From an uncultured Victivallales bacterium (GTDB taxonomy: Bacteria > Verrucomicrobiota > Kiritimatiellia > UBA8416 > CAZASC01), in assembly GCA_964487695.1 (NCBI GenBank), contig CAZASC010000003.1, forward strand, positions 19,306 through 83,305: 64,000 nucleotides of DNA. The letters run 5' to 3'. Under the pieces are notes generated by a model. That model saw only the letters and a program-made list of their open reading frames with translations, ran no database searches and was not told the origin of the DNA. The position numbers and the translations under genes are program-made. Of the stretch, positions 3 through 44,958 are shown piece by piece (positions within the stretch are counted from its first letter, which is position 1; each line of letters begins with the position of its first letter).

Positions 3-3000
3 GGCAACGCTCCGGTGAGTTTCTGCACCGGCATGCTGTTCACATTGGCCTGCCGGTGGGCGCGTGATTCCGATGGTTCGTCCGTGGCGAAAGTGTATAC
101 ATGGGAATGCGTGGGCGGAGTTTTTGGAGGTCTCGTGGTGACGCTCCTGCTGGCGCGAGGCGTGGCCGAGGAAACGCTTTTCCTTTACGCGGCTCTGTTA
201 GTGACTGCGATGTTTGCCATCTACAGGTTGAGCAAACGATCCCACGTCAGCGCTGTGTTGCCGGTTCTCGCTGTTGTTGCTGCGTTATATTCCGGTGTCG
301 CCGATCACTGGCGGGATTCCGACAACCGGCATACGTGGCAACGTGTTATATCAGCACAGTTGCCAAAAGGCAGCTTCACGACGCCTGAGGCGAAATACCT
401 GTATGGCGAGTATGGCGACCAGTTTAACGTCATGGTGTGGGAGACGGTGGCGGATACTATTCCAGCCACCGAACACGCATCGGAAATCGTGGCGTTACAT
501 CTCGCGCAGCGTCCAGCCGCCCGCCGATTTCTGGTGGCCGGGCGCGGAGCCTTTTCGATTTGCCGACGCCTGCTGATCTTGCCACAGACGGAGAAGATTA
601 CGTGGTTCGATCCTGATCCGGCTTATCCCGCACAACTGCTGAGCATATTGCCGCAACGCTTTCTGCCAGGGGTTGAGCGTCTGGAATTACCCAAAGCCGA
701 CATGCGGGGCTGGTTGGGGCAAACGCAGAACAAATACGACGTGATCATACTGGATTGGCCAGATGACGCCACTCTGGCGCTAAATCGTTACTTTACCCAG
801 GAGTTCTTCGAGTTGCTAAAGACGCACATGAGCGACTCCGGCATAATAGGCGTGCGGGTTTCCGCAGGCGAGAACTTCATGAGCGAAGACCGGGTGAATG
901 CCGGCGCATCAGTTTTCGCGACATTGCGCTCCGTGTTCAAATATCTCGTCATCAAACCCGGGGACGAAAGCTGGTTGCTGGTGTCGGACAATCCGGGACT
1001 GACGACAAGTCCAGCGGCGCTCAGGGACCGGTTCGCGGCCATCAATGGCGCAAATCAGATCTATCCTGCCGACGCGCTGATGGCATTGTACCTGCCGCAA
1101 CGCATTGAGTTTGAAATGCAAAGCTACGAGGCGGCCGTGCGAGACACGCCGGGCGAGATGCTGCTCAACACAGATCGCCATCCAAGAGCTTTGCTGCACG
1201 CGCTGCTATTTGCGGCCCATGAAGCTGGCGGCGTCCAGTGGCTGGGCGGCGCCATCAGAATGTTTGCTCTTCACGGTCTCCTTATTCTGCCATTGGGTCT
1301 GCTTCTCTTCGCTCTGCTTCGAGTCGTCTTTTTGCTCAAGAGCCGTGGAGTTGAAACGCCAGCGGACGGCAAGCAGTTCTCGGCCTTCGACGGCCACGCC
1401 CTCGTATTCACGACCGGCGCGGCAGGTATGGGCGGCAGTATCCTGTTGATGTTCCTGTATCAGTCCGCCTTTGGTTCCATTTTTCTGCACATGGGGCTGA
1501 TTTCGGCGGTCTTCATGCTCGGGCTCGCGCTCGGGAGCGCAGCGTCAGCCCGTATTGCGAGCGTTGGTTCTGGTAGGACATCGCCGGGGCTGCTGTGCGG
1601 CGTCATCCTGATGCATGTGCTTCTTTGCGGGGCGATCATGTCCATGGCGACGAGTCTTACCCGCGCAGAATTCGTCGCTGCTTTTCTCCTGAGCGGTCTA
1701 TTTAATGGTGCTTATGTTCCGCTGGCCGTGCGCCGTATGAACGCCGCCGGTATGCAGGACACGGCGGCTGGCGCCTGGATCGAAGCGATCGATCATCTCG
1801 GCGGTGCTGTGGGCGGATTAGTGACCGGACTGATTCTCCTTCCCGTTTTCGGAGCGTCGTACACACTTGTCGTCCTGATGTGTTTGCTTGCAACCAATCT
1901 GACGATGGTGTGGTTGCCTGCGAGGAACAGAGTTGAAATCCCGGATTATTCCAGCCGATCAATTGGAGCTTTCGGGTATGTCATCTTCGGCACTATCGCT
2001 TTCGCGTTGATGGCAGGCATATTGCTCCATCGTGGAGGCACCGATGAAAAGCGTCAGGCATTCCTGGCCTTTGCACGCTCGGCGGCGGGAAAAAGCGAAC
2101 TGCAAACGCGCCAGCTGACGCTCGGCAATGGAAAGACAATGGATTACTTTTGCGTGACCAACGAGCAGCCTGCGGAGACTGGATCGAGCGAAAGATACAT
2201 CTTTCAGACCGATACGTTATCTCCCGACATCGTCGGTTATGGCGGCCCGATCACACTCGCTGTCGTTCTGGATGCCGATGGCACGATCCAGAATGTCACG
2301 GTGTTGAATTCTGAGGAAACGCCATCTTATCTGGAGTTTCTCGGGCCTTGGATCAATCGGCTTCTCGGCGGCAAACTCTTTACGCCTGACCCTTTGAAGG
2401 ATGTGGATGCCGTGACTGGCGCAACGTTAACGTCAACTGCAATTCTTCGCATTCTCCGACAGGCCGGTCCCGCATTTGGCAGGGATGCGCTGGGCCTGTC
2501 GCTTGGCGCGGCGACGACGCCTGCGGTTTCCTTCTCTACGCTATACAAAGAGAACGTGTGGCTGGTGATTGCAATTATGACGGCGCTGGCTCTGCGAATC
2601 AGACCGTCCCGCTGGTTGCGGCGCGGATTTCTTCTTCTAGTCGTTGTGTTTTTCGGGTTTGTGTTCAACATGCAGTATTCGCTTGCTCACGTGTTTTCGC
2701 TTTTGAAACTCTCGATTCCGCCTTTTGGACTTGCTTCTATCTTTGCGCTGATTGCCGGGATTCCTTTGGTTGTGACGCTGTTCGGCAACGTTTATTGCGG
2801 TTACCTCTGTCCGTTTGGCGCGTTACAGGAGCTCGTCGGGGATCTCAGGCCGGCATTCCTGCGCACAGACCCGGACAAAACCATCTGGGCTTACGCCCGC
2901 TTCGTGAAATACCTGTTGCTCGCGCTGATGACCCTGTTCTTTGCCACGACTCTTGAATCGGCGCTCGCGTCAAACGATCCGCTTGTCACGATGTTCGCGC

Positions 3001-3530
3001 ATGAACGAAGTCACATTCTTTTATGGCTGGGGGGACTGCTTTTGGCGCTGGCATTTGTCTATCCGCGCTTTTGGTGCCGGACATTGTGCCCGACCGGCGC
3101 GTTTCTGTCTTTGCTTAACGGTATCCGTCTTTTCAAGCGGCTGATTCCGTTTGTCGCGCCGCGCGCCTGCGTGTATGGGGTAAGAGAGAGTCGCGAACTG
3201 GATTGCCTGTGCTGTGACCGCTGTCGCAGGCCGGGGCGACAGGAGGAGCGGGTATTGGCCAGATCGCCGGACTGGATTGCCGCGCGCCCTGTCAGGACAA
3301 TATTGCTTAGCACCACCATTGCGCTGGCCTTCATTCTCGCCGTCCAGACAACGGCGACATGGCGCAGTACTATCTTGACGATGGGCAATCGAGGGCAGGC
3401 GGGGATGAGCGGCAGCGGCGCCAAACCAGTTGATATGCAACGCCTCCGCTACCTGATCGAACAAGGCAAGCTATCCGACAAGGAAGCCCGTTTCTACAAG
3501 ACCGCCCCCAACGGACCGTCGCGCCCTTGA
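3..3530 (+). CDS. 5'-partial giant membrane redox fusion: polytopic membrane + spermidine-synthase-like module, second TM bundle, periplasmic FMN-binding domain, NosR/NapH-type CX3CP membrane module
   Basis: The frame is open to the window edge, so the gene is 5' partial. ORF aa ~100-345 look spermidine-synthase-like: acidic signature DVIILDWPDDATLALNRYFTQEFF, but a degenerate glycine loop (FLVAGRGAFS). Many hydrophobic helices lie before and after. nt 2400-2440 encode DVDAVTGATLTS, an FMN_bind/flavinylation-type motif as in NosR, RnfG and NqrC. nt 2796-2813 (CGYLCP) and 3075-3092 (CRTLCP) are the paired CX3CP motifs of NosR/NapH/MauN-type proteins, followed by a Cys-rich tail (CVYG..CLCCDRCRRP). 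Confidence 0.75.
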   Translation, partial: GNAPVSFCTGMLFTLACRWARDSDGSSVAKVYTWECVGGVFGGLVVTLLLARGVAEETLFLYAALLVTAMFAIYRLSKRSHVSAVLPVLAVVAALYSGVADHWRDSDNRHTWQRVISAQLPKGSFTTPEAKYLYGEYGDQFNVMVWETVADTIPATEHASEIVALHLAQRPAARRFLVAGRGAFSICRRLLILPQTEKITWFDPDPAYPAQLLSILPQRFLPGVERLELPKADMRGWLGQTQNKYDVIILDWPDDATLALNRYFTQEFFELLKTHMSDSGIIGVRVSAGENFMSEDRVNAGASVFATLRSVFKYLVIKPGDESWLLVSDNPGLTTSPAALRDRFAAINGANQIYPADALMALYLPQRIEFEMQSYEAAVRDTPGEMLLNTDRHPRALLHALLFAAHEAGGVQWLGGAIRMFALHGLLILPLGLLLFALLRVVFLLKSRGVETPADGKQFSAFDGHALVFTTGAAGMGGSILLMFLYQSAFGSIFLHMGLISAVFMLGLALGSAASARIASVGSGRTSPGLLCGVILMHVLLCGAIMSMATSLTRAEFVAAFLLSGLFNGAYVPLAVRRMNAAGMQDTAAGAWIEAIDHLGGAVGGLVTGLILLPVFGASYTLVVLMCLLATNLTMVWLPARNRVEIPDYSSRSIGAFGYVIFGTIAFALMAGILLHRGGTDEKRQAFLAFARSAAGKSELQTRQLTLGNGKTMDYFCVTNEQPAETGSSERYIFQTDTLSPDIVGYGGPITLAVVLDADGTIQNVTVLNSEETPSYLEFLGPWINRLLGGKLFTPDPLKDVDAVTGATLTSTAILRILRQAGPAFGRDALGLSLGAATTPAVSFSTLYKENVWLVIAIMTALALRIRPSRWLRRGFLLLVVVFFGFVFNMQYSLAHVFSLLKLSIPPFGLASIFALIAGIPLVVTLFGNVYCGYLCPFGALQELVGDLRPAFLRTDPDKTIWAYARFVKYLLLALMTLFFATTLESALASNDPLVTMFAHERSHILLWLGGLLLALAFVYPRFWCRTLCPTGAFLSLLNGIRLFKRLIPFVAPRACVYGVRESRELDCLCCDRCRRPGRQEERVLARSPDWIAARPVRTILLSTTIALAFILAVQTTATWRSTILTMGNRGQAGMSGSGAKPVDMQRLRYLIEQGKLSDKEARFYKTAPNGPSRP

Positions 3531-4601
3531 AGTTTGCGCGGATTTGCATCTCGGCAAGCGTTCGTGGGTATTCTGATTTATGTCGAGGATTTGTCCGTCG
3601 AAAGAAGAATCGGGTGTGAAGTATTTGCGAACGCCGGGAGAGATGTATATTCGGGTGGGGCGTTCATCGGGGATGAAGATGACATGACAGTTCGGCGTGC
3701 GTGCGAGAATCGGCAGAGATTTGTCGAGACCCAACACGAAGAATGGCTTCGTCATGGCGTCGGCCTTGACCGCGCTGTCGGCGATTATGGTGACGGATGC
3801 GACCCCTTCGACCGGATATCCTGTGAGCGGGTTCATGATATGGATGTAGCGTTTCCCATCGAGCATGAAGAATTTCTCGTAGTTGCCCGATGTGGCTACA
3901 GCCATGCCGTCGGATAAGCGGAGAGTACCGACGATCCGATCATGATCGAACGGATCGCGGATGCCGATGCTCCAGGGACGACCGGGCCCAGCCGAACCCC
4001 GGCAGCGGATGTGTCCGCCGAGGTTGACCATGAGATTCTTGATGTTGTTCGTCACCAATGCCTCGTAACAAACATCCACGGCATAGCCCTTGCCGATCCC
4101 GCCGAGATCAATACCCATGCCTTCCCGGTCGAGAAAGGCCGCGCCGTTCGACACGCTGAGGTGATGATAGCCAACCCGCTCAAGCACGGACGAGATCGCG
4201 GAGCTATCTGGAACGACCGATAACGGCGGACCCTTGTTGAAACCCCACAACCGCATCAAAGGCGCAACGGTTGGATCGAACGTCCCGTCGGTGGCCTCGG
4301 AGTAGTGCGTGGACAGCTGAAGCATGTTTTCAGTCATTGCCGATATTTGCACTGGAGATGCACCTGCGGACCGGTTAAGCCGGGAGATCTCGGAATCGGG
4401 CTTGAAGATGCTGAGGCGGTTGTCCAAGTCGCAGAGACTGGCTGCGGCTGTCGCCGAGGCTGAGTCCAATGCCGCCTCTTCGTCAGCCGACAGGGTGAGA
4501 CTTGCGTACGTGCCCATGCACGCCCATGTATTGCTCACCGGTTTTGCGGCGCGTGAACAGGCACTTGCGCCAGACAGCAGAAAGCAGAGACAGATTCGCA
4601 T
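3471..4601 (-). CDS. apbE: FAD:protein FMN transferase (ApbE family) lipoprotein
   Basis: Track ORF 3471..4889 trimmed to Met97 (ATG at 4599-4601), which gives the lipoprotein signal MRICLCFLLSGASAC. The body has ApbE-like blocks (GIGKGYAVD; AVATSGNYEKFF..GKRYIHIMNPLTGYPV). The Arg-rich 96-codon upstream extension looks non-coding. The 3' end overlaps the convergent CDS by 60 nt. Confidence 0.85.
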   Translation of the reverse strand: MRICLCFLLSGASACSRAAKPVSNTWACMGTYASLTLSADEEAALDSASATAAASLCDLDNRLSIFKPDSEISRLNRSAGASPVQISAMTENMLQLSTHYSEATDGTFDPTVAPLMRLWGFNKGPPLSVVPDSSAISSVLERVGYHHLSVSNGAAFLDREGMGIDLGGIGKGYAVDVCYEALVTNNIKNLMVNLGGHIRCRGSAGPGRPWSIGIRDPFDHDRIVGTLRLSDGMAVATSGNYEKFFMLDGKRYIHIMNPLTGYPVEGVASVTIIADSAVKADAMTKPFFVLGLDKSLPILARTPNCHVIFIPDERPTRIYISPGVRKYFTPDSSFDGQILDINQNTHERLPRCKSAQTSRARRSVGGGLVETGFLVG

Positions 4602-4892
4602 TGTCAGACCACACTTATCACGACTCCTTAAAAAGGCGTGAGTAATCCACCTGTGACGGAACGAGTTGCGCCGGAGGTGATGCCACACCGTTCTCCCTCT
4701 CTCCTCGCCAAGCGCGCGATAGGGGTGAACGGTCCTACATAGCATTTCTCTGTTGTAGAACCGCTTGCACAGCGCGAAGCGGCGAGAAGCGGTCTGAGAA
4801 ATGCGGGTCAGGAGTATGATGGAAAGTTTTTGCGAAGGCTCTACAGATATCTTCATATTGTTCGGAGCGGGGCAGCGCACGCAACGCAATTA

Positions 4893-5008
4893 AACCGTAG
4901 ATTGACGAATGATGAATATCGAATATCGAAGTACCGAATGATTTTGCAAAATCTGAATTTTGTTCCGCACTTCATTATTCCGGAATCGTCATTCGTCAAT
5001 ATGCGGTT
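4893..5008. repeat. Palindromic TIR-bearing intergenic element, copy A (MITE/REP-like)
   Basis: aaccgtagattgacgaatgatga (4893-4915) matches the reverse complement of tcgtcattcgtcaatatgcggtt (4986-5008) at 20/23 positions. The same termini recur at 44789-44911 in the opposite orientation, with a partly similar interior (acttcgatatt..cattca). The element lies in the 510-nt gap between the heptaheme gene and apbE. Confidence 0.55.
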
Positions 5009-5111
5009 CGGATGTCTCATTGTTTGTTTGAGGCGTTCGGCTCGACGGAGTCTCGCCCTCCCATAAGATATGCCGCTTTGAATGTGCTGTGTTTGTTACT
5101 ACACGATGCAC

Positions 5112-6611
5112 TTACGGAGCGCCAGTATGGCAGGTATCGCAGCGATCCGTTTTCCATGCGTCTTCGATGTCTTCCGGGTGCTTGAATTCGACGCCGTCCG
5201 ATACAAACCCTTTAAGATCGGCCTCCGTGCCCGGGCCCTGCGCGAGAATGGTGTGGCACATGTTGCAGTCTTTCCGGATGGTCGCACCGGATTTGCTCAC
5301 ATGCTGACCGTCGTGGCAGCGGAAACAGCCACCCGTGATTTTGTGGCCTGTCAGGTTCGGATATTCGTCCCATCTCACTTTCATCTCGGGGAAGAAGTTG
5401 CGCGTGTAAATCGCCTGGACTTCCTTGATCGTCTCGCCAAGTTTCGGATGTTGCGGATATTTCTCGCGCAAGCCGCCGGCGATGGCTTCGAGCGCCTGGG
5501 GCGTCGTGTCGTACTTGCCCACCAGCAGTTTCGCCGCGACCTCTTTTATACTTGGGATAGTGCGATCAATCGAGCCCTCCGACAAGGCGATGTCGAGCGC
5601 CTGATAAGGGGACAGGTAGCGGTGCGAAGGCCGGTTATGGCAATCGAGACAATCCATCTTTCGTGGCGGCAGAGTCGTAGCTTGTTCTGGCGTGAGGTGT
5701 TCGTCCTTGTTTGTCGTTTCGTAAATCGTGACGTTGCCCTTTTGATCCGTGACACGGATCCACGGGATGATGGAACGTTTGCGATCGGAAGCGATGTACT
5801 CGACCGTATTGACTCCTTCCATGTGCCAGTGGATGCCATGAATCATTCCGTGCGCCGGATCTCCGCCGCCTATGTTTATCAACATTTTGATTGTCCATGG
5901 GGAGTTCTTCTCATCTGGCAGGTATGTTGTCCAAGACTTCAACACGGCGCCGAAAAATTTCTGCGGCCAGTGGCAGGTGAGGCATGTTTCCTTCGCGGGA
6001 CGCAAATTGATCACGGGAGTCTCGATAGGCCTGTGATACTTGTTAAACATCACGGCGTATACCTGGTAGATCCCGGATAGCTTGGCCCTGACGAACCATT
6101 CCGCGCCCGGTCCGATATGGCAAGTCGTGCATGTTGTTTTGGAATGTGGTGAATTCTGGAATGTGGTGAATTCTGGTTTCATCACAGTGTGGCACACTTT
6201 GCCGCAGAATTCGACAGACTCAGTGAAGTGATACGTTCTGTAGGTGGCCACAGCCGAGACCGCAACAAAGATGACAAAGAAACACGATACTATGAGCAGG
6301 CGCGCCAGTGTTGTCTGGCTTCTCAAGTCAATCACGAGCGGATGAATGTCCCCGCCGGACCTCCTCTGCCGCCACGACATCCATAACATGCCTGCTATGA
6401 CCAGAAAGATACTGCCGGCAATAAGCAATGGAACGATTCCGTAAAGAAGTATGCCGAAGTATGGATTTGGCTGATCCTGCTGGATATCCACCACCAGCAG
6501 AACGGTGCCGGTGACAAATGCGAAACAGCCCAGGAAAATCCCCGCCAGGCTTATCCAGTTCCTTAATAAATCCGATATTGTCGCTTTGGGTCTCGTCTGG
6601 TTCATTTGCAA
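5112..6611 (-). CDS. Membrane-anchored heptaheme cytochrome c, NapC/NirT-type N-terminus (putative quinol dehydrogenase)
   Basis: Three N-terminal hydrophobic helices. FCGKVCH...SPHSKTTCTTCH resembles the NapC/NirT N-terminal di-heme signature. Also CLTCH, CLDCH, CFRCH, CNMCH and CDTCH, for 7 CXXCH in total. Confidence 0.8.
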   Translation of the reverse strand: MQMNQTRPKATISDLLRNWISLAGIFLGCFAFVTGTVLLVVDIQQDQPNPYFGILLYGIVPLLIAGSIFLVIAGMLWMSWRQRRSGGDIHPLVIDLRSQTTLARLLIVSCFFVIFVAVSAVATYRTYHFTESVEFCGKVCHTVMKPEFTTFQNSPHSKTTCTTCHIGPGAEWFVRAKLSGIYQVYAVMFNKYHRPIETPVINLRPAKETCLTCHWPQKFFGAVLKSWTTYLPDEKNSPWTIKMLINIGGGDPAHGMIHGIHWHMEGVNTVEYIASDRKRSIIPWIRVTDQKGNVTIYETTNKDEHLTPEQATTLPPRKMDCLDCHNRPSHRYLSPYQALDIALSEGSIDRTIPSIKEVAAKLLVGKYDTTPQALEAIAGGLREKYPQHPKLGETIKEVQAIYTRNFFPEMKVRWDEYPNLTGHKITGGCFRCHDGQHVSKSGATIRKDCNMCHTILAQGPGTEADLKGFVSDGVEFKHPEDIEDAWKTDRCDTCHTGAP

Positions 6612-6657
6612 GTTCTGCCTTTACGAGCCAGTTTCGCGTGTATTTACGCCTGGCGGA

Positions 6658-7452
6658 TTATGCGTAACTGTGTAAACCGCTTAACAGAAAGTTAACGCCA
6701 ATGTAAGTGAAAAGCACCGACAAAAAACCGACAATCGAAAGCCATGCCGCGCGCCTGCCGCTCCAGCCTCGCATATAGCGGCAATGCAAAAACGCCGCAT
6801 AGATAAACCATGTGATGAGCGACCATGTTTCCTTTGGATCCCACGACCAGTAAGTTCCCCAGGCCGAGTTTGCCCAGACGGCGCCGGTAATGATGCCGAT
6901 GGTCAGGAAAATAAAACCGAAAGCCACAGTCTGAGTCATTACAGATTCCATGGCGTTTCTCGCCGGCTGCTCCGATAAAGTGGAAGAGCGCTTTGCAGCG
7001 ATGAGATAGGCGATTGCTGCGATAAAGGAAATTGCGAATCCTGAGTAACCGAGGAAGCAGGTGAAGACATGGAACGTGAGCCAGTTGCTGCGGAGGGCCG
7101 GAACCAGGGGTTCGATATCGGATTTGAAAGAACTGGCGTAAGCCAGCGTAACCGTGGCGAGTAGCGCGGCGGCAACTCCGAGAACGGGAACGTGTTGCTT
7201 GACGCGGACAACCAGATAAACAACAACAGTTGCCCACGCGAACAAAACGAGGGATTCGAACATATTGCTGAAGGGCGGCCTGCCGGCTTCATGCCAGCGC
7301 CAGATAATGTAAACTAATTGAAGCATGCTGGCTGCGGTCAGCAGGGAGTTGATCGCCCAGTCGAGAAAACGGCGTTTAACGAACAGGTTGATCACGGCAA
7401 AGAAGAAAGCGATGACGTAACCGGACATAACAAGGTTGAATAACTGCGTCAT
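6658..7452 (-). CDS. ccsA: Cytochrome c biogenesis protein CcsA/ResC (System II heme handling)
   Basis: Polytopic protein with a Trp-rich heme-handling signature (WANSAWGTYWSWDPKETWSLITW). Its start overlaps the ResB-like gene by 4 nt. Confidence 0.85.
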   Translation of the reverse strand: MTQLFNLVMSGYVIAFFFAVINLFVKRRFLDWAINSLLTAASMLQLVYIIWRWHEAGRPPFSNMFESLVLFAWATVVVYLVVRVKQHVPVLGVAAALLATVTLAYASSFKSDIEPLVPALRSNWLTFHVFTCFLGYSGFAISFIAAIAYLIAAKRSSTLSEQPARNAMESVMTQTVAFGFIFLTIGIITGAVWANSAWGTYWSWDPKETWSLITWFIYAAFLHCRYMRGWSGRRAAWLSIVGFLSVLFTYIGVNFLLSGLHSYA

Positions 7453-8729
7453 GGCAATTGTCCCTCACTCACAGACGGTTGGTTTGCGGCTGGCTTCTTC
7501 CGGCCTGCCGGTTTGAAGCAGAGAAGCAGGATCAACCCGCTAACCATGCTGAGAAAACCCGCATATACAACGGGCACGCCAGGATCATGCACCACCTCCA
7601 GTGTGCTTTGCGTCAGATCGCCGGGATTGTAACCGGACTGGTAGAGTGTGTAGCCGCGAAAACTGAGAGGCGAATTCACTTCGATCGTTTTCTCTACGAG
7701 AACGTTGCTGTCTTCCAGAAGCTGGAGCTTGCTCTTGAAGCTGCGGATTGGTCTTGAACGGTTCTGAAAGCTGTCCTCATTTTCTGCGCCGTTTGAAAGA
7801 TATAGCAGCTTCAGGTTTCCGGCGGCCCCCTTGTCGGACGGAGAGTGGAGCATGTCGAAATCGGGATGCCTGGCGAATATCCACTTGCTGACATGAACAT
7901 CGCCGGAATTGACCTCAACGAGAATCGCGGGATTATTTGGAGACCCGGAGCGGCTGCCTGCTTCGTGGGTATTCATATCTATGACAAAATCCGGCTCATA
8001 TCTGGACACTGTCACGTTGACGGCATTCGATTCTGTCTGAGTTTCCTTGTCAGGATGAAGAGAAATAATGGAGGTGCCAACTTCGACAACTACCTGCGTC
8101 TCGATATGACGCTCCGGCCAGGCAATGCTGAGCATGTCCGGCTTGTCGGCATCAGGATTCGCATCCGTCTTCTCATCATAGTATTCCAGATTGAACTTAA
8201 CGAGGCGCACATCGAATGGCAGTCTTGTCGGGCCGGTGGGTGTCATGAAATGTGCTTGTGTCTCGCCTTCCCGGATTTCCATTTCGCCTTTTTGTCCCAC
8301 GGCTCCACGGATCACAGCGCCGCCAAGGATCAGCAGGAGGCTCATGTGCGTGAGAAGAAACCCCCAGCCGGATGTTCCCATGCGCCCGGACTTAATAAGA
8401 TTCGACATGCGGCGGATCAGGCATGCGACGACATTCAAGGAGAAAAAGACGAGCAGGCCGATAAACCACCACGACTCGAACACATTCGCAAGCCCGACAG
8501 AAGCGAGAAACTTCATCTGGCTTGCGTGCTGAGGATTGGCGCGGAGGTATTTCTGCACATCTCCGCCTTGGGGCAGAAGAGTGCCCAGAATGCAGGCCAC
8601 CACTATGAGGGAGCCGACTGCCGTCGCCAACTTGGCTGACGAAAGCTCCCCCAGAATAATTCGGAAGACCCCGGTACCTTCGGTACGTGTTGTCGTATCA
8701 GGTCGAGAATTCTCGTTGTTGTTGATCAC
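7449..8729 (-). CDS. ccsB: Cytochrome c biogenesis protein ResB/CcsB
   Basis: N-terminal TM ending ..ACILGTLLPQG, a large soluble loop and C-terminal TMs. This architecture and the pairing with ccsA are typical of System II. The gene abuts the tetraheme gene (8729/8730). Confidence 0.75.
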   Translation of the reverse strand: MINNNENSRPDTTTRTEGTGVFRIILGELSSAKLATAVGSLIVVACILGTLLPQGGDVQKYLRANPQHASQMKFLASVGLANVFESWWFIGLLVFFSLNVVACLIRRMSNLIKSGRMGTSGWGFLLTHMSLLLILGGAVIRGAVGQKGEMEIREGETQAHFMTPTGPTRLPFDVRLVKFNLEYYDEKTDANPDADKPDMLSIAWPERHIETQVVVEVGTSIISLHPDKETQTESNAVNVTVSRYEPDFVIDMNTHEAGSRSGSPNNPAILVEVNSGDVHVSKWIFARHPDFDMLHSPSDKGAAGNLKLLYLSNGAENEDSFQNRSRPIRSFKSKLQLLEDSNVLVEKTIEVNSPLSFRGYTLYQSGYNPGDLTQSTLEVVHDPGVPVVYAGFLSMVSGLILLLCFKPAGRKKPAANQPSVSEGQLP

Positions 8730-9314
8730 TTACTTCTTTACGTCAGGATCAGGATGTTCGATCTTCTTGAATGCCTGTTCGACATCGAAGCCGACTTTCT
8801 TTCCATCCTTGGTCGTGTAGAGCTCAGGATTCCAGGACGGCGATTTGTCGTTGTGGCATTTCTCGCAGCTTTTCGTGGCTGGATATACCATGCCGTTCTT
8901 GACGGCGTCATCGCGGACCTTCATGGTCTCCTTGCTCTTGTAATTCTTTCCGGCTCCGTGGCACGATTCGCAGCTGACACCTTCTTCGACCGGTATCACG
9001 TCTGTCTGCTTTGTCTCGGTCCAGTTGTAAGCGGTGGAGTGGCATTGCAGGCATTTCCCGCTCGTCTGAGGATTGTCTATCTTGAGCTTTGCGCCTGCGG
9101 CCTTTGCGGCATCCCCGGCCAGTGCGGCATACGCCTTGGCATGAGGACCTGCTTCCCACTTGCCGAACTGATCGCCCTTCTTCTCGCCTTTATGGCACAT
9201 CTTGCAGGACTTGACTCCAACATAAAGCGAAGCGTCAGGACCATCGCCAGCCTGAACGTTCGCCGCCGCAAAAATTCCCATCGCAATGCACGCAGTAACA
9301 ATATATGCCTTCAT
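8730..9314 (-). CDS. Periplasmic tetraheme cytochrome c (c554-like small multiheme)
   Basis: Signal peptide MKAYIVTACIAMGIFAAANVQA. Four CXXCH motifs: CKMCH, CLQCH, CESCH, CEKCH. Confidence 0.8.
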   Translation of the reverse strand: MKAYIVTACIAMGIFAAANVQAGDGPDASLYVGVKSCKMCHKGEKKGDQFGKWEAGPHAKAYAALAGDAAKAAGAKLKIDNPQTSGKCLQCHSTAYNWTETKQTDVIPVEEGVSCESCHGAGKNYKSKETMKVRDDAVKNGMVYPATKSCEKCHNDKSPSWNPELYTTKDGKKVGFDVEQAFKKIEHPDPDVKK

Positions 9315-9606
9315 CAGTTATCTCCTTGTTCTATTTAAGCCCCAAAGACTCTCTTTTTCACTGTCAAAAGTAAAGCTGAAATAACTGAAATGTGACAAGA
9401 TAAAATGAAGTTATGCCCATCTCGTCATCGTCTTCTTAAATACTGTGATAGCGTCTCATTTCTGCCAATCTGCTGTAAATAGGACAAATCTATAAAGTCA
9501 GGGATGGATCGCTTGGATCTGCGCCTGTGGAACGAATTGGCAGGGCCGGTTTTATACTGGCCACGTCCGAAGCCGACATAAAGTTGGCTCTACCAGGAAA
9601 AACACA

Positions 9607-9790: not shown

Positions 9791-11044
9791 TCATTTAAGC
9801 TTCTTGAGTGCCTTGACGATATCTTCCGGCTCCATCCGCTTCGTATAGTCAAAATCCACCAGTCCGTCGCTTATGATGGCCTTCTGATCAATGATGTACG
9901 TGGAAGTCACCGGCAGTTGCAAATGTCCCTTGCCGTTGTAACTCTCAAGATCAACTCCGAATTTCTCGCGGTACACTTTCTGCATGGCTTCAGGAACGTT
10001 ATACAGGAGATGGTATGCTTTCATCGTATCGCCGGTCCCATCGGTCAGCAAAGGGAAAGTGAGATTGTTTTGGCCGCTCTGCGCGGTCGCTTTCTCCTCC
10101 ATCTGCGGAGACACGGCGATCAGCGATGCCCCGAGCTTAAGAATGTCCGGATAGACTTTTTCGAGCGCCCTGAGCTGGAGGTTGCAAAATGGGCACCATT
10201 CTCCACGATAGAACACGAGAACAACCGGCCCCTTTTTCAGCGCTTCGTAAAGCGAAACCGATTTTCCAGTTGCGTCCGGCAATGTGAAATCGGGAGCCTT
10301 GTCGCCGATTTTAAGCCCATCATGACCGCTGGAGGCCATGATCTCCTTTTCGGCTTTGTTGAGCGCCTCCTCGGAGTCTTTGTCCAGAGCTTTCTTCTCC
10401 TGCTCCTTGTAAGTCGCGGCGCTTTCCGCCAGCGTCTTGGATTTGGCCGCCTCAGGCTTCGCTTCGATGGCCTCGATGTCAAGAATCAGTTCCACATCGT
10501 TCCCGAGCATCGTCACCCCGTTGGTAAGGGTTGCATTGTAGGCAACGCCGAAATCCATTCTGTTGATCGTCGCTGTTGCATGAAATCCAGCGCGATGCGC
10601 TCCTCGGGGATCCACCCCATGCCCGAGAAACTGTCCCTTGAAAGTCACTTCCTTCGTGATTCCGCGGATGGTCAGGTTGCCGGTAACGGCGCCTGCGTCC
10701 TTTGTATCGCCCAGGGATGTGCTGGTGCTAACAAATGTGGCTGTCGGATGATTTGCGGCGTCGAAGAAATCGGGCGTGCGCAGATGTTTCTCCCGATCCG
10801 CATTAGCGGTGTCAATGCTGGCAATGTCCACCGAAGCGGAAACTTTCATCGTCGTCGGGTTGTCAGGGTCGCCAGAGATGGTGCCCTCGAATTTGTCAAA
10901 GCGTCCTGAGAACATTGAATAGAGATGCCTGACTCTGAATTGAACGCTCGAATGGACAGGATCAATCTGAAACTGCTTTTCTTCGGCCTGTCCGGCGGTC
11001 GCCAGCATCAGCCCGGCAAATAGCGAAATCGCAACCTTCTTCAT
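9791..11044 (-). CDS. Secreted YceI-like domain fused to AhpC/TSA-type peroxiredoxin/redoxin domain
   Basis: Trimmed to ATG 11044, with a GGGAGG-like RBS upstream and signal peptide MKKVAISLFAGLMLATAGQA. YceI-like blocks: FQIDPVHSSVQFRVRH, GNLTIRGITKEVTF, INRMDFGV. A Lys/Glu-rich linker follows, then a redoxin domain (IGDKAPDFTLPD..VVLVFYRGEWCPFCNLQL). Confidence 0.7.
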   Translation of the reverse strand: MKKVAISLFAGLMLATAGQAEEKQFQIDPVHSSVQFRVRHLYSMFSGRFDKFEGTISGDPDNPTTMKVSASVDIASIDTANADREKHLRTPDFFDAANHPTATFVSTSTSLGDTKDAGAVTGNLTIRGITKEVTFKGQFLGHGVDPRGAHRAGFHATATINRMDFGVAYNATLTNGVTMLGNDVELILDIEAIEAKPEAAKSKTLAESAATYKEQEKKALDKDSEEALNKAEKEIMASSGHDGLKIGDKAPDFTLPDATGKSVSLYEALKKGPVVLVFYRGEWCPFCNLQLRALEKVYPDILKLGASLIAVSPQMEEKATAQSGQNNLTFPLLTDGTGDTMKAYHLLYNVPEAMQKVYREKFGVDLESYNGKGHLQLPVTSTYIIDQKAIISDGLVDFDYTKRMEPEDIVKALKKLK

Positions 11045-11194
11045 GATTACCTCCCGAATTTTTTGTTTGTTACAGCGAGAACCGTGCCACAAAAGGGAAG
11101 CATTGTCCAGAATACATGATGCTTTATCCATGGTCTTTCGGGTTAAACTTTGCTGAAGCTGTGACGAAGCGTGGGCTACAACTTGCAACATCTG

Positions 11195-11797
11195 TCATTT
11201 TGTCATCAGAAGCACGGACAACATTGCTGTTGACCAGAGAATGTCCGGCGGAACGTGCCGCTCGCAAGTGGCATCGAACAGCAGTTCGGCCCTGGCCGCA
11301 AACTCGTCGTCTTCGCGCCATAACACGACTGTAAGCGGCAGGCGTGGAAACGGGAAAAGCGTCACGGCTGCATCGCCATAAGTTTGCCGCCCGCCGCCGA
11401 ATCGCAATCCCTGCGTAAGAAATCCATCCGTATCCATGGCATATTTGACGGCCAGAGCATCGAGCGGCAACACATGAGATCCAGTGAAATAGATGGCTCC
11501 AACCTTCAGGTCCGACGGTTTGACAAGCTTGCCGGACAGCGGCAATGCCTGCGCTGCGATCAAGTAATGCAGGATTGAAAGATGGGAGAAATAAGCCATC
11601 TTCTTCAGGATCAAATCGCAGTCCTGAAAAGCGCCGTTGATCGTCAGTTCTTTGGGTGACACGGTTACAGGGTGGCCGAACATGTTTACGATATAACTCC
11701 CGTCCGAAGGATTGTGAGTCGAGAGTGATCGCTCGCAAACGTCAATCGGATTCAGCAACTCCAAGTCCGACCAGGCTTTCTCCTCTCCTGCTTTCAT
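11195..11797 (-). CDS. DUF3786-like protein
   Basis: Trimmed to ATG 11797, 2 nt after the stop of the upstream gene. The sequence (AWSDLELLNPIDVCERS..; LSILHYLIAA; VVLWREDDEFAARAELLFD) resembles DUF3786 proteins as I remember them. This is recognition only, with no search. Confidence 0.45.
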   Translation of the reverse strand: MKAGEEKAWSDLELLNPIDVCERSLSTHNPSDGSYIVNMFGHPVTVSPKELTINGAFQDCDLILKKMAYFSHLSILHYLIAAQALPLSGKLVKPSDLKVGAIYFTGSHVLPLDALAVKYAMDTDGFLTQGLRFGGGRQTYGDAAVTLFPFPRLPLTVVLWREDDEFAARAELLFDATCERHVPPDILWSTAMLSVLLMTK

Positions 11798-11799
11798 CG

Positions 11800-12900
11800 C
11801 TATTTTGTCCACCCATGCCGGTCCCGCAGGAAAGAACTCAAAGACGACGTCAGAGAGAAGACTTGTTCGGCATCGCCGGCTTCCATAAAACCAACGCCGC
11901 AAGAGGGTGTGATCATGGCCTGTCGCGCCAGCCCTTCCGGGTCAAATCCCTTTTTGGCGACAAGCGCCATCATTCGATCGAGCCTGCCGGCAAGACTTTC
12001 AACAGTCTCGGTGCGGATGGCTTCCGTCGTTGGCACGATGCCCCATGCCACGACACCGCCTCGATCGAAGTGCGTGCGAAGCGATGCGCCGTATCGGGCT
12101 ATTGTCTCGCCGTACGCGAATGCGTCGAAATTGAGGATATCAACCCCGGCATCAATCGGAATGCTCCAGTCGGTATTGCCGCAACAGTGCATCCCCGCAA
12201 AAGCGCCCTCGGCCTGGATCGAACTCACGACTTCCCGCAACATTTCCACCACATCCTCCCGCTTCACTCCAATGTACGAGGCGCTGCCGAAAGCGGACAG
12301 AGCGGGTTCATCCACAAAGCAGATCACGTCCTCCGCGTAGCGGCGGAAACGACGGATCTGCCAGCGACTCTTCAAAGCCAGCGTCTTGGTTACGACGTCA
12401 CGCAGTTCTTCCCGGTAATAAACCGGCAGGCCTTCGGCGTCCTGGCATGACAGTGCAAATGTGCAGGGCCCGGTCGTCTGGACTTTTACGAACGGCAGCT
12501 TTGGCCGATTAGCAAGAGCTCTTTCAAAGGCATCAATGCCCTTGGAGAACTCTGATGACAACGCAAAGCGATCCCAGGCTGCAGTCTTCGATGCTTGCCC
12601 CATAACATCCATGTAGTCCTGGTAAAATGCCTCCAGCTCTTCAGTAAGATCGCGGGATGTATCAATCATGGTTTTGCGTTTATCTTCGTTGATTATTGCG
12701 CCGGGCATGCCTTCGCTGTACTGGGCGATCATGTCCTCGCGGACGCCGAGGCGGGGCAGTTGCGGCCAAAACGGCGCTTCAGGGAAATGGCGGAAAACCA
12801 AATTAAGCGCATATTCAGGATCGGCAAACGGCATGCTGCCAATGCCTGTTGCGGTAAACATCGGTGCTCTCATAAGTCTACGATCTCCTGACGTGAACAC
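11800..12900 (-). CDS. TIM-barrel Zn-methyltransferase-like protein (MetE C-terminal / UroD-MtaA superfamily)
   Basis: N-terminus ..ATGIGSMPFADPEYALNLVF..FWPQLP.. and a candidate Zn motif GMHCCGN resemble cobalamin-independent methionine-synthase-like or MtaA-like enzymes. The true start may be Met10 or Met14 of the track ORF. Confidence 0.45.
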   Translation of the reverse strand: MFTSGDRRLMRAPMFTATGIGSMPFADPEYALNLVFRHFPEAPFWPQLPRLGVREDMIAQYSEGMPGAIINEDKRKTMIDTSRDLTEELEAFYQDYMDVMGQASKTAAWDRFALSSEFSKGIDAFERALANRPKLPFVKVQTTGPCTFALSCQDAEGLPVYYREELRDVVTKTLALKSRWQIRRFRRYAEDVICFVDEPALSAFGSASYIGVKREDVVEMLREVVSSIQAEGAFAGMHCCGNTDWSIPIDAGVDILNFDAFAYGETIARYGASLRTHFDRGGVVAWGIVPTTEAIRTETVESLAGRLDRMMALVAKKGFDPEGLARQAMITPSCGVGFMEAGDAEQVFSLTSSLSSFLRDRHGWTK

Positions 12901-12959: not shown

Positions 12960-13478
12960 TCAGCCTTGGTTCTTATTCTTTGGCAAAGACGATGTCGGTC
13001 CGTGATCATGGTCATGATCGTGAGGATGATAATGCGATTGGGTGGGGGTGCCGCCCGCTCCGCCTGCGTCAGCCAGCGCCTTCTTTAGAAGTTCGTCGGT
13101 GGCGGCCATATTTGCCACGGCCTTATCTAGAAGCGCTGCCAGAGTTTCTCCCCCTTCAGCACGCGCTGCTGCTGCCCACTGTTTGAACTCGACCCCATGT
13201 TTCTGGCTATGTTCAATCCAGTGCGGGAGAAGAAACCGCAGTTTCTCAAGCGTCGTTTTCGGATTCATTTCAGGCATCTTTTCCTGTTTTGTCTCGCTCA
13301 CGCTTACTTTGCCCTGCAGGAAATCAATGCCTGTGATCGCCACTCCCTGTATGAGCTTAGGTTGTTCAAACAACGCGTTAGCCCGAATTCCATCATCCAC
13401 CACTTCAAGGAGGGCCGCGTTTTCCAACACAACCTGTTCTTTACCGTTTTGTTTCAGGACAATGCTCATTTGACACAT
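12960..13478 (-). CDS. CooT-like N-terminal domain fused to a helical domain with His-rich tail (putative metallochaperone)
   Basis: The first ~65 aa (MCQMSIVLKQNGKEQVVLENAALLEVVDDGIRANALFEQPKLIQGVAITGIDFLQGKVSVSE) have the Met-Cys start and strand pattern of CooT-family proteins. The C-terminus is helical and ends QSHYHPHDHDHDHGP. The start overlaps the fdhD 3' end by 38 nt. Confidence 0.6.
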   Translation of the reverse strand: MCQMSIVLKQNGKEQVVLENAALLEVVDDGIRANALFEQPKLIQGVAITGIDFLQGKVSVSETKQEKMPEMNPKTTLEKLRFLLPHWIEHSQKHGVEFKQWAAAARAEGGETLAALLDKAVANMAATDELLKKALADAGGAGGTPTQSHYHPHDHDHDHGPTSSLPKNKNQG

Positions 13479-14283
13479 GCGAAACCTCCATTCTCTTTAT
13501 CTGTTTACCATCTGACGTGACGATCCGCCATCCATGAGTGTACACGGAAAGACCGTCATCCCGCACAAAACCGCACAACGTTATGCCGAACCTGTCGGCA
13601 GCTTCGACGGCGGCGTTTGTCGGGGCGCCGACAGCCAGCAAAATCGGGATGCGCGCCCGCCCGGCCTTGATGATCATCTCGATGCTGGTTCGCCCTGAGA
13701 GAAACACCGACGTGGCATCCATGGAAATTTGGTTAAGCATGGCATATCCGATCAGTTTGTCCATCGCATTGTGGCGGCCAACGTCCTCCTTCACGCACGC
13801 AATAGCTCCGTCCGGTTTGATCAATGCGGCGGCATGCGCGCTCCCGGTGGCGCGGAACAGCGGTTGCGAATCCCGGATTGCCGCCTGTACCCGGTGGATT
13901 TGTTCCAGCGAAATCCGGCAATCGGACTCGATTCGCGCAAGCGATCTGATCAATGCTTCAATATCCTCCCTGCCGCAAAGCCCGCACGATGAAGTCATCA
14001 CCAGTGTGCGTTGGGGGTTATCGCTTGGTGCTGAAGTCTTGACCATGATGGCGTCCGGCGTATCGGGACATTCGCTGAGAAGCATGATATCTACGATGTT
14101 TCCGATCAGCCCCTCAGTGAACAGGAAGCCGACGACGAGTTCCCGATCGTTTCCCGGTGTGCGGAGCAGCGTGTAGTTGACGCCGTCAACCTGGATGCTC
14201 AGGGGACTTTCGGAAATAACGACATCGCGACGAAGGTGTCCTTCCGGATGGACTGAATCGAACTTTACCGCTTCGATCTCCAT
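13441..14283 (-). CDS. fdhD: Formate dehydrogenase accessory sulfurtransferase FdhD
   Basis: Trimmed to ATG 14283. Carries the conserved SSCGLCG loop and GRHNAMDK block of FdhD and lies immediately downstream of fdhA. Confidence 0.85.
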   Translation of the reverse strand: MEIEAVKFDSVHPEGHLRRDVVISESPLSIQVDGVNYTLLRTPGNDRELVVGFLFTEGLIGNIVDIMLLSECPDTPDAIMVKTSAPSDNPQRTLVMTSSCGLCGREDIEALIRSLARIESDCRISLEQIHRVQAAIRDSQPLFRATGSAHAAALIKPDGAIACVKEDVGRHNAMDKLIGYAMLNQISMDATSVFLSGRTSIEMIIKAGRARIPILLAVGAPTNAAVEAADRFGITLCGFVRDDGLSVYTHGWRIVTSDGKQIKRMEVSHVSNEHCPETKR

Positions 14284-14318
14284 CTTTTCGGCGGAAGGAG
14301 ACAGATGCGACCGATCAC

Positions 14319-20122: not shown

Positions 20123-20133
20123 GAACAAACCTT

Positions 20134-23978: not shown

Positions 23979-23981
23979 GGT

Positions 23982-30793: not shown

Positions 30794-30997
30794 TGCGCTT
30801 TATTTTATCCATAATATTCATCGTCAACAATGGGATAATTCTACAGGACATCCGTTCGCGAGGGCTTTCCCCTTGAGTCCGCCGTGCAGTCTACTGTATA
30901 TTTGCAACTTGTTGGCGCTTGGGATGGTGGGCGGCTCGTGAGAAATCAGGAACGCCATCCCTGGTCAACGCTGGTGTCGGACAGGGGATGTATATCC

Positions 30998-34815: not shown

Positions 34816-34826
34816 AGAGAGATAAT

Positions 34827-36371: not shown

Positions 36372-36564
36372 AGGAGAGGCCGCTTGTCTGGCTGGATGAC
36401 ATGGGTTTTATGTGGTGCATAATTCGATTAATCGTAGAATGATCCTATTGTTGCACCCAGGCGTTTTGCGCTAATATATGGATGGTTTCGTGGTAAAAGG
36501 TTTAGTATCAAGCATGTACCGATATTGGGCGCTCGAAGTGACGAAAAGTCAGGAGAAAGATGTG

Positions 36565-41372: not shown

Positions 41373-41373
41373 T

Positions 41374-43974: not shown

Positions 43975-43985
43975 AAAGTATTGTC

Positions 43986-44911: not shown

Positions 44912-44958
44912 GGGTTGCAGGCAATGCCTGTGTTAATACTTGGAGATTGGACAGTATA

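Follow-up and report, generated by a model that had tools for sequence, protein, structure and literature searches.

Within a 64,000-nucleotide stretch of DNA from an uncultured Victivallales bacterium (assembly GCA_964487695.1, contig CAZASC010000003.1, positions 19,306 to 83,305 of the forward strand; here called the window) the first gene encodes a very large membrane protein in which a polytopic half containing a spermidine synthase (SpeE)-like domain is fused to a flavin and iron-sulphur (Fe-S) unit of the NosR/NapH type. This protein, referred to below as the megafusion, is firmly tied by its gene neighbourhood to the AmmeMemoRadiSam triad. Canonical AmmeMemoRadiSam systems (TIGR04335, TIGR04336 and TIGR04337) have been described as comprising three soluble proteins, generally taken to be cytoplasmic. 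We consider it probable that the megafusion is the inner-membrane hub of an envelope-located variant of this system, with a flavin/Fe-S conduit of its own, and that the cytochrome genes lying next to it in the window are a separate matter. A preliminary description of positions 3-9314 had grouped the megafusion with the flavin transferase ApbE, two cytochromes and a dedicated pair of cytochrome maturation proteins as one redox module.

The megafusion gene and its distribution

Positions 3-3530 of the plus strand form a single unbroken reading frame with its stop codon at 3528-3530. The frame had been described as exceeding 1170 codons and as incomplete at its 5' end; the missing part has since been recovered from a protein collection, giving a full protein (P0001) of 1295 amino acids of which the window encodes the C-terminal 1175. 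Residues are numbered here according to P0001, the corresponding number in the window fragment being smaller by 120. An identical full-length gene is carried by loci L001, L089 and L090. In the window fragment Pfam models recognise Spermine_synth (28.8 bits, fragment residues 162-283), FMN_bind (54.9 bits, 745-821) and two copies of Fer4_5 (49.3 bits). The features of the locus are collected in Table 1.

The same set of Pfam domains is found in more than 120 protein clusters at 90% identity, with lengths of approximately 1190-1330 amino acids, and an exhaustive HMMER scan returned 874 representatives of 50% identity clusters at E<=1e-30, with full-length proteins making up nearly all of the best 150. 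The architecture is present in at least 80 species-level genomes, all of them metagenome-assembled, from about eight phyla; its carriers include Planctomycetota, Lentisphaerota/Victivallales, Kiritimatiellota, Verrucomicrobiota, Hydrogenedentota, Nitrospirota (Nitrospiraceae), Thermodesulfobacteriota, Desulfomonilaceae and Bacteriovoracaceae. In databases the homologues go by the names '4Fe-4S binding protein' or 'spermidine synthase', both of which are misleading.

Table 1. Features of the megafusion locus (window positions unless a locus is named; TM, transmembrane; AF2, AlphaFold2 model)
Feature	Position	Strand	Basis or remarks
Megafusion gene	3..3530	+	Last 1175 of 1295 codons; first 360 nt fall before the window
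Remainder of first TM bundle, N-terminal MFS-like half (P0001 121-235)	3..347	+	AF2 helices 2-22, 27-51, 56-77, 81-96, 99-115; hydropathy
SpeE-like soluble domain (P0001 236-514)	348..1184	+	PF01564, phmmer, Foldseek, motif conservation
Connecting helix (P0001 532-566) and second six-helix MFS-like bundle (P0001 581-757)	1236..1913	+	AF2 helices; MFS_1 in homologues
TM anchor and extracytoplasmic FMN_bind domain	1947..2546	+	PF04205 54.9 bits; RnfG chains by Foldseek
NapH/NosR-like membrane Fe-S module, six helices	2547..3350	+	Two Fer4_5; weak NosR/NapH NCBIfam matches; conserved Cys
C-terminal tail after last TM helix (P0001 1237-1295)	3351..3527	+	Family consensus
ApbE (FAD:protein FMN transferase), predicted lipoprotein	3471..4601	-	PF02424 283 bits; probable start M97
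ImcH-type inner-membrane cytochrome, 499 aa	5112..6605 (ORF 5112-6611)	-	Three N-terminal TM helices, one CX3CH, six CXXCH
CcsA (System II synthase subunit)	6658..7452	-	PF01578 187 bits
ResB/CcsB (System II)	7449..8729	-	PF05140 142 bits
Periplasmic c554-like tetrahaem cytochrome, signal peptide	8730..9314	-	PF13435 60 bits; four CXXCH
Twin-arginine (RR)-motif peptide, 62 aa, MTRRQFIQ...KEGKWQG	L001 5230-5418 (= L089 10001-10189)		Between radical SAM gene and megafusion, upstream of the window

Conserved operon partners

The surroundings of the megafusion were compared by searching 83 loci with the genes of the window (tblastn) and then by de novo clustering of all open reading frames (ORFs) of the loci. 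Clustering brought out three recurrent neighbours: a radical SAM (rSAM) gene, a small ORF, and a gene of about 535 codons in which Memo and AMMECR1 are fused (Memo-AMMECR1). The rSAM gene, at 4262-5233 in L001, 268 nt upstream of the megafusion start, lies just outside the window and is present in 61 of the 83 loci by tblastn; its product is the enzyme of the AmmeMemoRadiSam system, scoring 373 bits with TIGR04337 against a cut-off of 220. The Memo-AMMECR1 fusion is matched by the two respective Pfam models with 190 and 163 bits and passes both TIGR04336 and TIGR04335. Examples are L046 8376-9983, L008 6480-8030 and L010 1643-3184, with some 50 other loci, and in most cases its stop codon is 0-4 nt from the start of the megafusion or overlaps it. 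When attention is restricted to the 61 genome loci whose upstream flank exceeds 3 kb, the rSAM gene is found in 54, Memo-AMMECR1 in 51 and at least one of the two in 55. The linkage is kept where gene order has changed, as in L080 and L083 with their divergent genes, and holds down to 28% identity between megafusions. This is an argument that function, and not inheritance alone, lies behind it.

The two larger partners appear to differ in their location. An N-terminal hydrophobic segment, of the signal peptide, lipobox or signal anchor kind, precedes the Memo domain in 53 of 55 full-length Memo-AMMECR1 proteins, and in approximately 24 of these it finishes with a lipobox-like cysteine, so that export of the fusion is predicted. 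The rSAM protein is without an N-terminal export signal.

The small ORF encodes a peptide of about 60 residues in which R3, R4, F6, W60 and G62 are invariant across phyla, giving an RRxF start and a W-x-G end, usually with YPG between them. Its ATG overlaps the rSAM stop codon as ATGA, the two genes being translationally coupled. Some members have Ala/Gly-rich, weakly hydrophobic cores that are unlike transmembrane (TM) anchors and resemble signals for twin-arginine translocation (Tat). The peptide has no match in Pfam or NCBIfam, and its 37 database relatives are all labelled 'hypothetical'. The peptide could serve either as a substrate exported by Tat or as a small subunit.

Other recurrent neighbours were considered as partners and set aside, each being present in fewer than 14 of 82 loci; among these were histidine kinases, DUF2905, PolX, ABC ATPases, AMP-binding enzymes, DUF72, arginase and arginine decarboxylase. 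Genes for a UbiA prenyltransferase with an Rce1-like protease, or for a polyprenyl synthase, were observed near the rSAM-megafusion operon at L084 5014-6668, L085 2450-3313 and L088 5875-6765. A link to isoprenoids has been proposed for Memo systems; three loci are too few for an association.

The C-terminal flavin and Fe-S module

The C-terminal part of the megafusion begins with a TM helix (residues 769-798) that precedes the FMN_bind domain, for which the PF04205 score stands well clear of the cut-off of 22 bits. This domain carries the flavinylation motif DAVTGATLTS. The TGAT core had been placed at nt 2415-2426 by the preliminary description and is indeed there, the predicted flavin mononucleotide (FMN)-bearing residue, Thr928, being encoded by nt 2424-2426. 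In an alignment of 66 sequences the family motif is D-[AG]-V-[TS]-G-A-T-x-[TS]-S, with the Gly and Ala in 66 of 66 and the Thr in 65 of 66. The preceding TM helix and the structural match to RnfG together suggest that the domain is extracytoplasmic.

Two CX3CP motifs follow, as had been described, YCGYLCP at nt 2796-2813 and WCRTLCP at nt 3075-3092, and beyond them lies a four-cysteine site, C1176-x11-C1188-x2-C1191-x2-C1194, at nt 3168-3224. The cysteines and prolines of the CX3CP motifs and the cysteines of the third site are conserved in 65-66 of the 66 sequences. If the helices are counted off alternately with the FMN domain outside, both CX3CP motifs and the four-cysteine site fall on loops rich in Lys and Arg, the last cysteine-bearing loop averaging 11.5 such residues. 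The accepted topology of NosR and NapH agrees with cysteine sites on Lys/Arg-rich inner loops. After the last TM helix comes a tail, predicted to be periplasmic, with the conserved motif G..R.VD......LI..G.LSD.EA..Y. A subtype of approximately 1190 amino acids, mostly from Planctomycetota, is without the last TM helix and the tail, its matches stopping at query residue 1076.

Structural comparison of this module by Foldseek recovered only RnfG chains, and these weakly (E~2e-3, TM-score ~0.5); no solved NapH or NosR membrane domain was among the matches. The equivalog models are likewise not reached, the scores being 64.1 against 1000 for NosR (NF046105) and 37.2 against 213 (NapH/MauN) and 25.8 against 234 for the NapH set (TIGR02163/NF007013). 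No nosZ or napAB cluster was among the recurrent neighbours of 82 loci, and the molybdenum enzymes of the window fall in formate-dehydrogenase-like and NrfD-linked sets. The module resembles a NosR/NapH-type conduit in its working, yet lies outside those equivalogs.

ApbE

ApbE enzymes install covalent FMN on motifs of this kind, and the preliminary description had pointed to the convergent apbE gene of the window as encoding this enzyme. Such a role is credible. ApbE was found near the megafusion in eight of 83 loci by tblastn and in seven of 82 with an ApbE hidden Markov model, and it occurs in three arrangements: convergent in the lineage of the window; co-directional and overlapping the end of the megafusion in four Phycisphaerales/Sedimentisphaerales genomes; and, in L010, as the first gene of a string of ApbE, rSAM, peptide, Memo-AMMECR1 and megafusion. 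Flavinylation of the megafusion is supported because these three arrangements come together with an invariant motif and a conserved lipobox cysteine in ApbE, and ApbE is on these grounds a plausible maturase of the megafusion.

The gene itself is shorter than its ORF. The 472-codon frame (3471-4889) is over-extended at its 5' end, and a conserved lipoprotein start at M97 (nt 4599-4601) gives a protein of 376 amino acids. The convergence of the two genes stands, as does, at the level of ORFs, their 60-nt 3' overlap (3471-3530), but the overlap arises from a tail that is not conserved: an orthologue of 67% identity stops about four residues past a conserved ...GQILDI, which corresponds to residue 341 of the 376-residue window protein, leaving the last 35 residues without a counterpart.

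The N-terminal half

The N-terminal half was modelled with AlphaFold2 as part of the whole 1175-residue chain, using the alignment of 66 sequences. Helix positions were taken from the list that the model gives; an in-house hydropathy scan overlooked some helices or ran them together. In the model eight helices are placed between the SpeE-like domain and FMN_bind. The bundle preceding FMN_bind has the invariant residues D717, G720, G724, P734 and G737, and polar residues within helices are invariant at Q26, R31, N122 and D717. The major facilitator superfamily (MFS) model MFS_1 scores above its cut-off of 33.4 bits on this second bundle in the homologues P0053 (37.5), P0065 (36.0) and P0070 (38.3) and below it in other homologues, and the window protein has no MFS_1 match at E<=0.01. 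The layout suggested by the model is that of a 12-helix MFS-like core in which the central loop has been replaced by a TM helix, the SpeE-like domain and a further TM helix.

This layout bears on the side of the membrane at which the SpeE-like domain lies. An MFS half starts and finishes in the cytoplasm. Because the second bundle corresponds to one such half, ending inside, and FMN_bind lies outside, helix 532-566 would run from outside to inside, and the SpeE-like domain before it is probably periplasmic.

The domain retains a complete SpeE fold. Searches of the PDB with phmmer matched 3anx/1uir at E=3e-9, and Foldseek aligned the same Thermus SpeE structures (1uir/3anx) over about 290-305 columns with a target TM-score of 0.68-0.70 and 22-23% identity; with the whole model as query only SpeE structures were returned. 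The Pfam model PF01564 is passed narrowly (28.8 bits, cut-off 22.9), and curated SpeE models remain below their cut-offs (TIGR00417 30.7 against 250, PRK00811 35.9 against 260, PRK03612 69 against 472), as does NF037959, the model for fused MFS/spermidine synthase proteins (35.5 against 40).

A SpeE protein is defined by a GGG[DE]G loop that binds decarboxylated S-adenosylmethionine (dcSAM) and by a D-x-x-D-P catalytic and diamine-binding motif. The glycine loop had been called degenerate, and so it is: the window protein has FLVAGRGAFS at nt 528-557, AGRGAF taking the place of GGG[DE]G, and across the family G300 is the sole invariant glycine of the loop. At the second motif the consensus of the family reads NLPD. 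Most members have Asn for the first catalytic Asp, and several have lost the second; the window protein, with DWPD, keeps both. In the pocket G300, D325, N381 and R382 are invariant, N381 and R382 being peculiar to this family, and D366 and P373 nearly so. Aminopropyltransferase activity appears unlikely from these substitutions, though the pocket is under selection.

The neighbouring cytochrome and haem island

Downstream of the megafusion the minus strand carries genes for a tetrahaem cytochrome, ResB, CcsA, a seven-haem cytochrome and ApbE. All five pass curated Pfam cut-offs, in the order previously described. The seven-haem protein had been called a NapC-type heptahaem cytochrome. Seven haem sites there are, six of them CXXCH and one CX3CH (CGKVCH), in a NapC/NirT-like protein, but the features are those of the ImcH type. 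Homologues of ImcH have been described as proteins of 495-519 amino acids with three N-terminal TM helices, an atypical CX3CH beside the TM domain and six CX2CH (PMC6295460). The window cytochrome fits this description, the comparison being one of family features. The ImcH-type family, with more than 4658 homologues, is far larger than that of the megafusion.

The cytochromes and the ResB/CcsA pair had been taken as parts of the megafusion module, and this is not supported. In the tblastn comparison of 83 loci the ImcH-type cytochrome and CcsA are near the megafusion only in L001-L003, which are near relatives of the window; ResB is near it only in L002 and L003, L001 ending inside CcsA, and the tetrahaem gene is near it in none. 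A count of haem motifs over 82 loci picked out L001, L002 and two unrelated loci. In relatives at 55-58% identity the rSAM gene is present and no cytochromes are nearby, and in L002 an insertion of 5.6 kb separates the megafusion and ImcH-type gene sets. Conversely L086, from a Pontiellaceae isolate genome, and L087 have an ImcH-type gene without a megafusion. The neighbours there are a fusion of multihaem and cytochrome-b parts resembling CbcL, a c554-like/ResB/CcsA trio, genes for haem biosynthesis and MtrC-like cytochromes; the c554-like-ResB-CcsA trio of the window recurs in L087. The cytochromes and ResB/CcsA belong to a separate haem and cytochrome island resembling those for extracellular electron transfer.

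Nor is the System II pair private to the megafusion. The island in the window extends over about 45 kb; its c-type cytochrome genes number five and together encode 45 haem motifs, and it has a single ResB. A second CcsA-like gene is present in the 64-kb window, and no second ResB. Because the window holds three c-type cytochrome genes beyond those next to the megafusion, as well as genes for haem biosynthesis and this second CcsA-like gene, the pair is a general one.

Several further gene sets were observed in this region. Directly after the tetrahaem-ResB-CcsA genes, 9791-11191 encodes a secreted fusion of a YceI-like domain with an AhpC/TSA thioredoxin-fold domain bearing a WCPFC motif, which might supply System II with reduced thiols in the manner of ResA/CcsX; a DUF3786 gene (11195-11902) follows it. 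At 12960-20137 are genes for a CooT-like protein, FdhD, a formate-dehydrogenase-like molybdenum enzyme with a NuoG-type N-terminus (14319-17087) and a 1028-residue NuoF-like/GltD-like fusion (17051-20137), a set that looks like a soluble formate dehydrogenase linked to NAD(P) or ferredoxin. On the minus strand, 21385-27100 encodes a four-haem class-I cytochrome c, an NrfD-type membrane subunit, a 4Fe-4S protein and a molybdopterin oxidoreductase, resembling complexes of the Psr, Qrc or ACIII type.

The second CcsA-like gene, which is also HemX-like, lies beside hemA (30884-33192). It is followed at 33379-39237 by a trio reminiscent of porin-cytochrome systems, comprising a 478-residue signal-peptide protein without a Pfam match, a 514-residue lipoprotein with 21 CXXCH motifs and a 919-residue MtrC-like protein with nine. 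Taken with the ImcH-type gene, the make-up of this trio suggests a Geobacter-style route of extracellular electron transfer in a bacterium of the Planctomycetes-Verrucomicrobia-Chlamydiae (PVC) group. At 40182-49942 are two radical SAM/SPASM proteins (AhbC/D-like), an NirD/L-like siroheme decarboxylase, CbiK, a HemC-CobA-HemD fusion, HemB and HemL. The gene content of this block indicates a siroheme-dependent alternative haem route next to the cytochrome genes, with classical haem genes present too. Long antisense ORFs opposite the ImcH-type gene (5082-6080, plus strand) and the tetrahaem gene (8754-9338, plus strand) are most likely spurious shadows.

Proposed role and alternative explanations

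If the megafusion is the hub of an envelope-located AmmeMemoRadiSam variant, its parts may be assigned as follows. The lipoprotein ApbE would attach FMN covalently to Thr928, outside the membrane, and the cysteine sites would hold Fe-S clusters at the cytoplasmic face, so that the C-terminal module could move electrons through the membrane in the way proposed for NosR, NapH and PceC. Memo is a metal-dependent, dioxygenase-like redox protein, and the flavin might feed electrons to, or withdraw them from, a periplasmic Memo-AMMECR1 step, with the cytoplasmic rSAM protein and the RR peptide acting upstream of it. The MFS/SpeE-like half, probably facing the periplasm in its soluble part, would be a module for binding, translocation or docking and would make no polyamines.

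A number of points weigh against this interpretation. All members of the family are known from sequence and predicted structure alone. Neither rSAM nor Memo-AMMECR1 is present in about six of the 61 adequately flanked loci, and Memo-AMMECR1 is absent from the locus in the window's own lineage (L001, L002, L088 and L089) and, by tblastn, from the 64-kb window. ApbE adjoins the megafusion in just seven of 82 loci. The NosR and NapH scores are far under their cut-offs, and there is one four-cysteine site, whereas NosR and NapH are defined by a pair of ferredoxin-type CxxCxxCxxxCP motifs at the C-terminus. The placing of the SpeE-like domain in the periplasm rests on helix counts and MFS homology, positive-inside counts over the whole alignment being indecisive. 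Lastly, the ImcH-type gene is convergent to the megafusion in three genomes (66-70% identity), and in L088 it lies 4 nt from the megafusion with no ApbE between them.

The proposal can be extended to a scheme of peptide maturation in the envelope. The cytoplasmic rSAM protein would modify the C-terminal W-x-G of the RR peptide, the Tat system would export the peptide, and the lipoprotein Memo-AMMECR1 would finish an oxidative step in the periplasm, with electrons given by the flavinylated NosR-like module while the periplasmic SpeE-like domain held the substrate. As a complete account this is unlikely. Were it true, Memo and AMMECR1 would for the first time have a defined substrate and a setting for their reaction.

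The module of the preliminary description comprised the megafusion, ApbE, the seven-haem and tetrahaem cytochromes and a dedicated ResB/CcsA pair, with electrons from quinol passing through the cytochromes to or from the flavin domain. These genes are contiguous in the window, and the three genomes in which the ImcH-type gene is convergent to the megafusion (the window/L089, L002 and L088) are of the very lineage that is without Memo-AMMECR1 at the locus. There is also a hint of shared regulation: a PocR-AraC regulator and a single-domain response regulator stand upstream of the rSAM-megafusion operon in L088 (6773-8439) and on the contig of P0009, and the same pair stands upstream of the ImcH-type gene in L087 (8274-9828), where no megafusion is nearby. 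Against this must be set the confinement of the cytochromes and ResB/CcsA to three of 83 loci, all near relatives; their absence near megafusions of 55-58% identity; the insertion in L002; the presence of the ImcH-type/c554-like/ResB/CcsA set without a megafusion in L086 and L087; and the further cytochromes, CcsA-like gene and haem genes that make System II a general provision in the window. A self-contained module seems rather improbable in consequence, and the same judgement applies to an electron exchange between megafusion and cytochromes peculiar to this lineage.

It might be argued instead that the megafusion is chiefly a transporter, with transport through its 12-helix MFS-like core gated or sensed by the flavin and Fe-S module, and with flavin for ApbE, a polyamine, an rSAM product or the modified peptide among the candidate cargoes. 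The MFS_1 matches above cut-off in several homologues and the invariant polar residues within the helices would suit such a role, and a cytoplasmic rSAM protein with an exported Memo-AMMECR1 implies that something crosses the membrane. But the window protein itself gives no MFS_1 match, no substrate is indicated, the peptide's own twin-arginine motif suggests export by Tat instead, and the invariant flavinylation and cysteine motifs argue for electron transfer as the core function. We think a transporter quite improbable.

Alternatively the SpeE-like domain could be an active transferase using SAM or dcSAM, moving aminopropyl or methyl groups onto an envelope substrate (a lipid, a quinone, a polyamine or the RR peptide), with the redox module as an accessory. 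Retention of the entire fold, the strong constraint on the pocket and the two Asp residues kept in the window protein speak for this, but the loss of all but one invariant glycine from the loop, the replacement or loss of the catalytic Asp residues and curated SpeE scores of 31-69 bits against cut-offs of 250-472 speak against it, as does the MFS-based topology, which places the domain in the periplasm, where neither SAM nor dcSAM is found. Such an activity is highly doubtful.

That the ORF joins two unrelated genes through misassembly or a frameshift, at which a few split or truncated database entries weakly hint, can be taken as ruled out by five contigs with the same arrangement, hundreds of collinear full-length homologues, an even composition and a confident model of the whole chain (mean pLDDT 88.4, pTM 0.86). 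The five contigs come from different samples (three from JGI, two from ENA), and in them the peptide gene recurs just upstream of the megafusion; two span the whole locus with the same order of rSAM, 62-codon ORF, 1296-residue megafusion, ApbE, cytochrome, CcsA, ResB and tetrahaem genes, and two short ones end within the megafusion gene. At the domain junction, nt 1900-2200, for which the preliminary description had raised the question of a chimera, composition shows no step. As for the split entries, which might be read as 'Rosetta stone' cases, P0081 stops at a contig end, and P0110, which is followed by an overlapping separate Fer4_5 gene on a long-read contig, is probably a frameshift. The union of a polytopic SpeE-like module with a NosR/NapH-type unit, as first described, is therefore a real fusion, and the Pfam domains bear it out.

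Relation to known systems

The closest class of known proteins is that of the flavinylated NosR/NapH-type conduits, of which the megafusion is an uncharacterised variant. ApbE-linked NapH-like proteins form 2465 clusters (Meheust et al., 2021, PMC8238504), and the main text of that study is without mention of a fusion of the megafusion type. Like NosR, NapH and PceC (RdhC) (PMC8238504), the megafusion has an extracytoplasmic FMN_bind domain with [S/T]GA[T/S], two CX3CP motifs and, in some loci, a nearby ApbE, and for these proteins too a role as transmembrane electron conduit has been proposed. It differs from them in having some 770 additional N-terminal residues and one four-cysteine site, and in its partners, which are AmmeMemoRadiSam genes and not NosZ, Nap or a dehalogenase. 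RnfG and NqrC share with it an N-terminal TM helix followed by an extracytoplasmic domain with covalent FMN, and theirs are the sole solved structures that match the C-terminal module; the match is weak, however, other Rnf or Nqr subunits are not associated with the megafusion, and its FMN domain is joined to a NapH-like Fe-S membrane domain.

For the N-terminal half the nearest relatives are the proteins of NF037959 and PRK03612, the latter, a membrane-bound polyamine aminopropyltransferase, being the best NCBIfam match; in both, polytopic N-terminal helices are likewise followed by a SpeE fold. The megafusion adds a second helix bundle and the redox module, shows degeneration of both glycine loop and catalytic Asp, and falls below the cut-offs of both models (40 and 472 respectively).

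The rSAM protein passes the equivalog cut-off of the AmmeMemoRadiSam system and the Memo-AMMECR1 of related loci passes both of its own. The signal peptide or lipobox on Memo-AMMECR1, the RR peptide and a membrane redox protein of about 1290 residues set the present system apart from the canonical one. A neighbourhood of AMMECR1, a ring-opening-dioxygenase-like protein and a radical SAM protein was noted in 2007 (PMC2034487).

In pathways for peptide-derived cofactors, such as those for pyrroloquinoline quinone (PQQ), mycofactocin and the cysteine tryptophylquinone (CTQ) subunit of quinohaemoprotein amine dehydrogenase, a radical SAM enzyme acts on a peptide and later steps are located in the envelope. 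The coupling of a small peptide with an invariant C-terminal aromatic motif to a radical SAM gene may be likened to these. The likeness is one of analogy only, with no homology shown, and neither a recognition element for ribosomally synthesised and post-translationally modified peptides (RiPPs) nor a SPASM domain was detected; the peptide, moreover, has a twin-arginine motif.

As regards the cytochrome island, the neighbouring 499-residue protein with its three N-terminal TM helices is like ImcH, which with CbcL is an inner-membrane quinol oxidase of Geobacter-type extracellular electron transfer, and CbcL-like fusions stand alongside it in relatives. The host of the window differs in being a bacterium of the PVC group.

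The preliminary description knew of no fusion of the two families. It is indeed not described in the literature searched, but the architecture is common, though uncharacterised. On the megafusion or on bacterial Memo-AMMECR1 that literature offered only PMC2034487 and one mention in PMC7159879, and an earlier description of the neighbourhood is possible. As far as has been searched, novelty lies in three things, namely the megafusion, its tight association in one operon with an exported Memo-AMMECR1, and the RR peptide.

Significance

NapH/NosR-like flavinylated proteins are a recognised and mostly uncharacterised class, to which the megafusion adds a degenerate spermidine-synthase fold set into an MFS-like core. 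For annotation there is value in telling the megafusion operon apart from the ImcH-type cytochrome and haem island that adjoins it in the window.

Memo and AMMECR1 are conserved up to humans and linked to disease, and their function is still to be found. The chemistry of the AmmeMemoRadiSam triad has been open since the triad was noticed in 2007, and the link to the megafusion bears on it, the operon offering as handles the sites for flavinylation and for Fe-S, an exported Memo-AMMECR1 and a candidate peptide whose termini are invariant. The abundance of the family in Planctomycetota, in other PVC bacteria and in several anaerobic phyla suggests that its function is probably a common one of the bacterial envelope.

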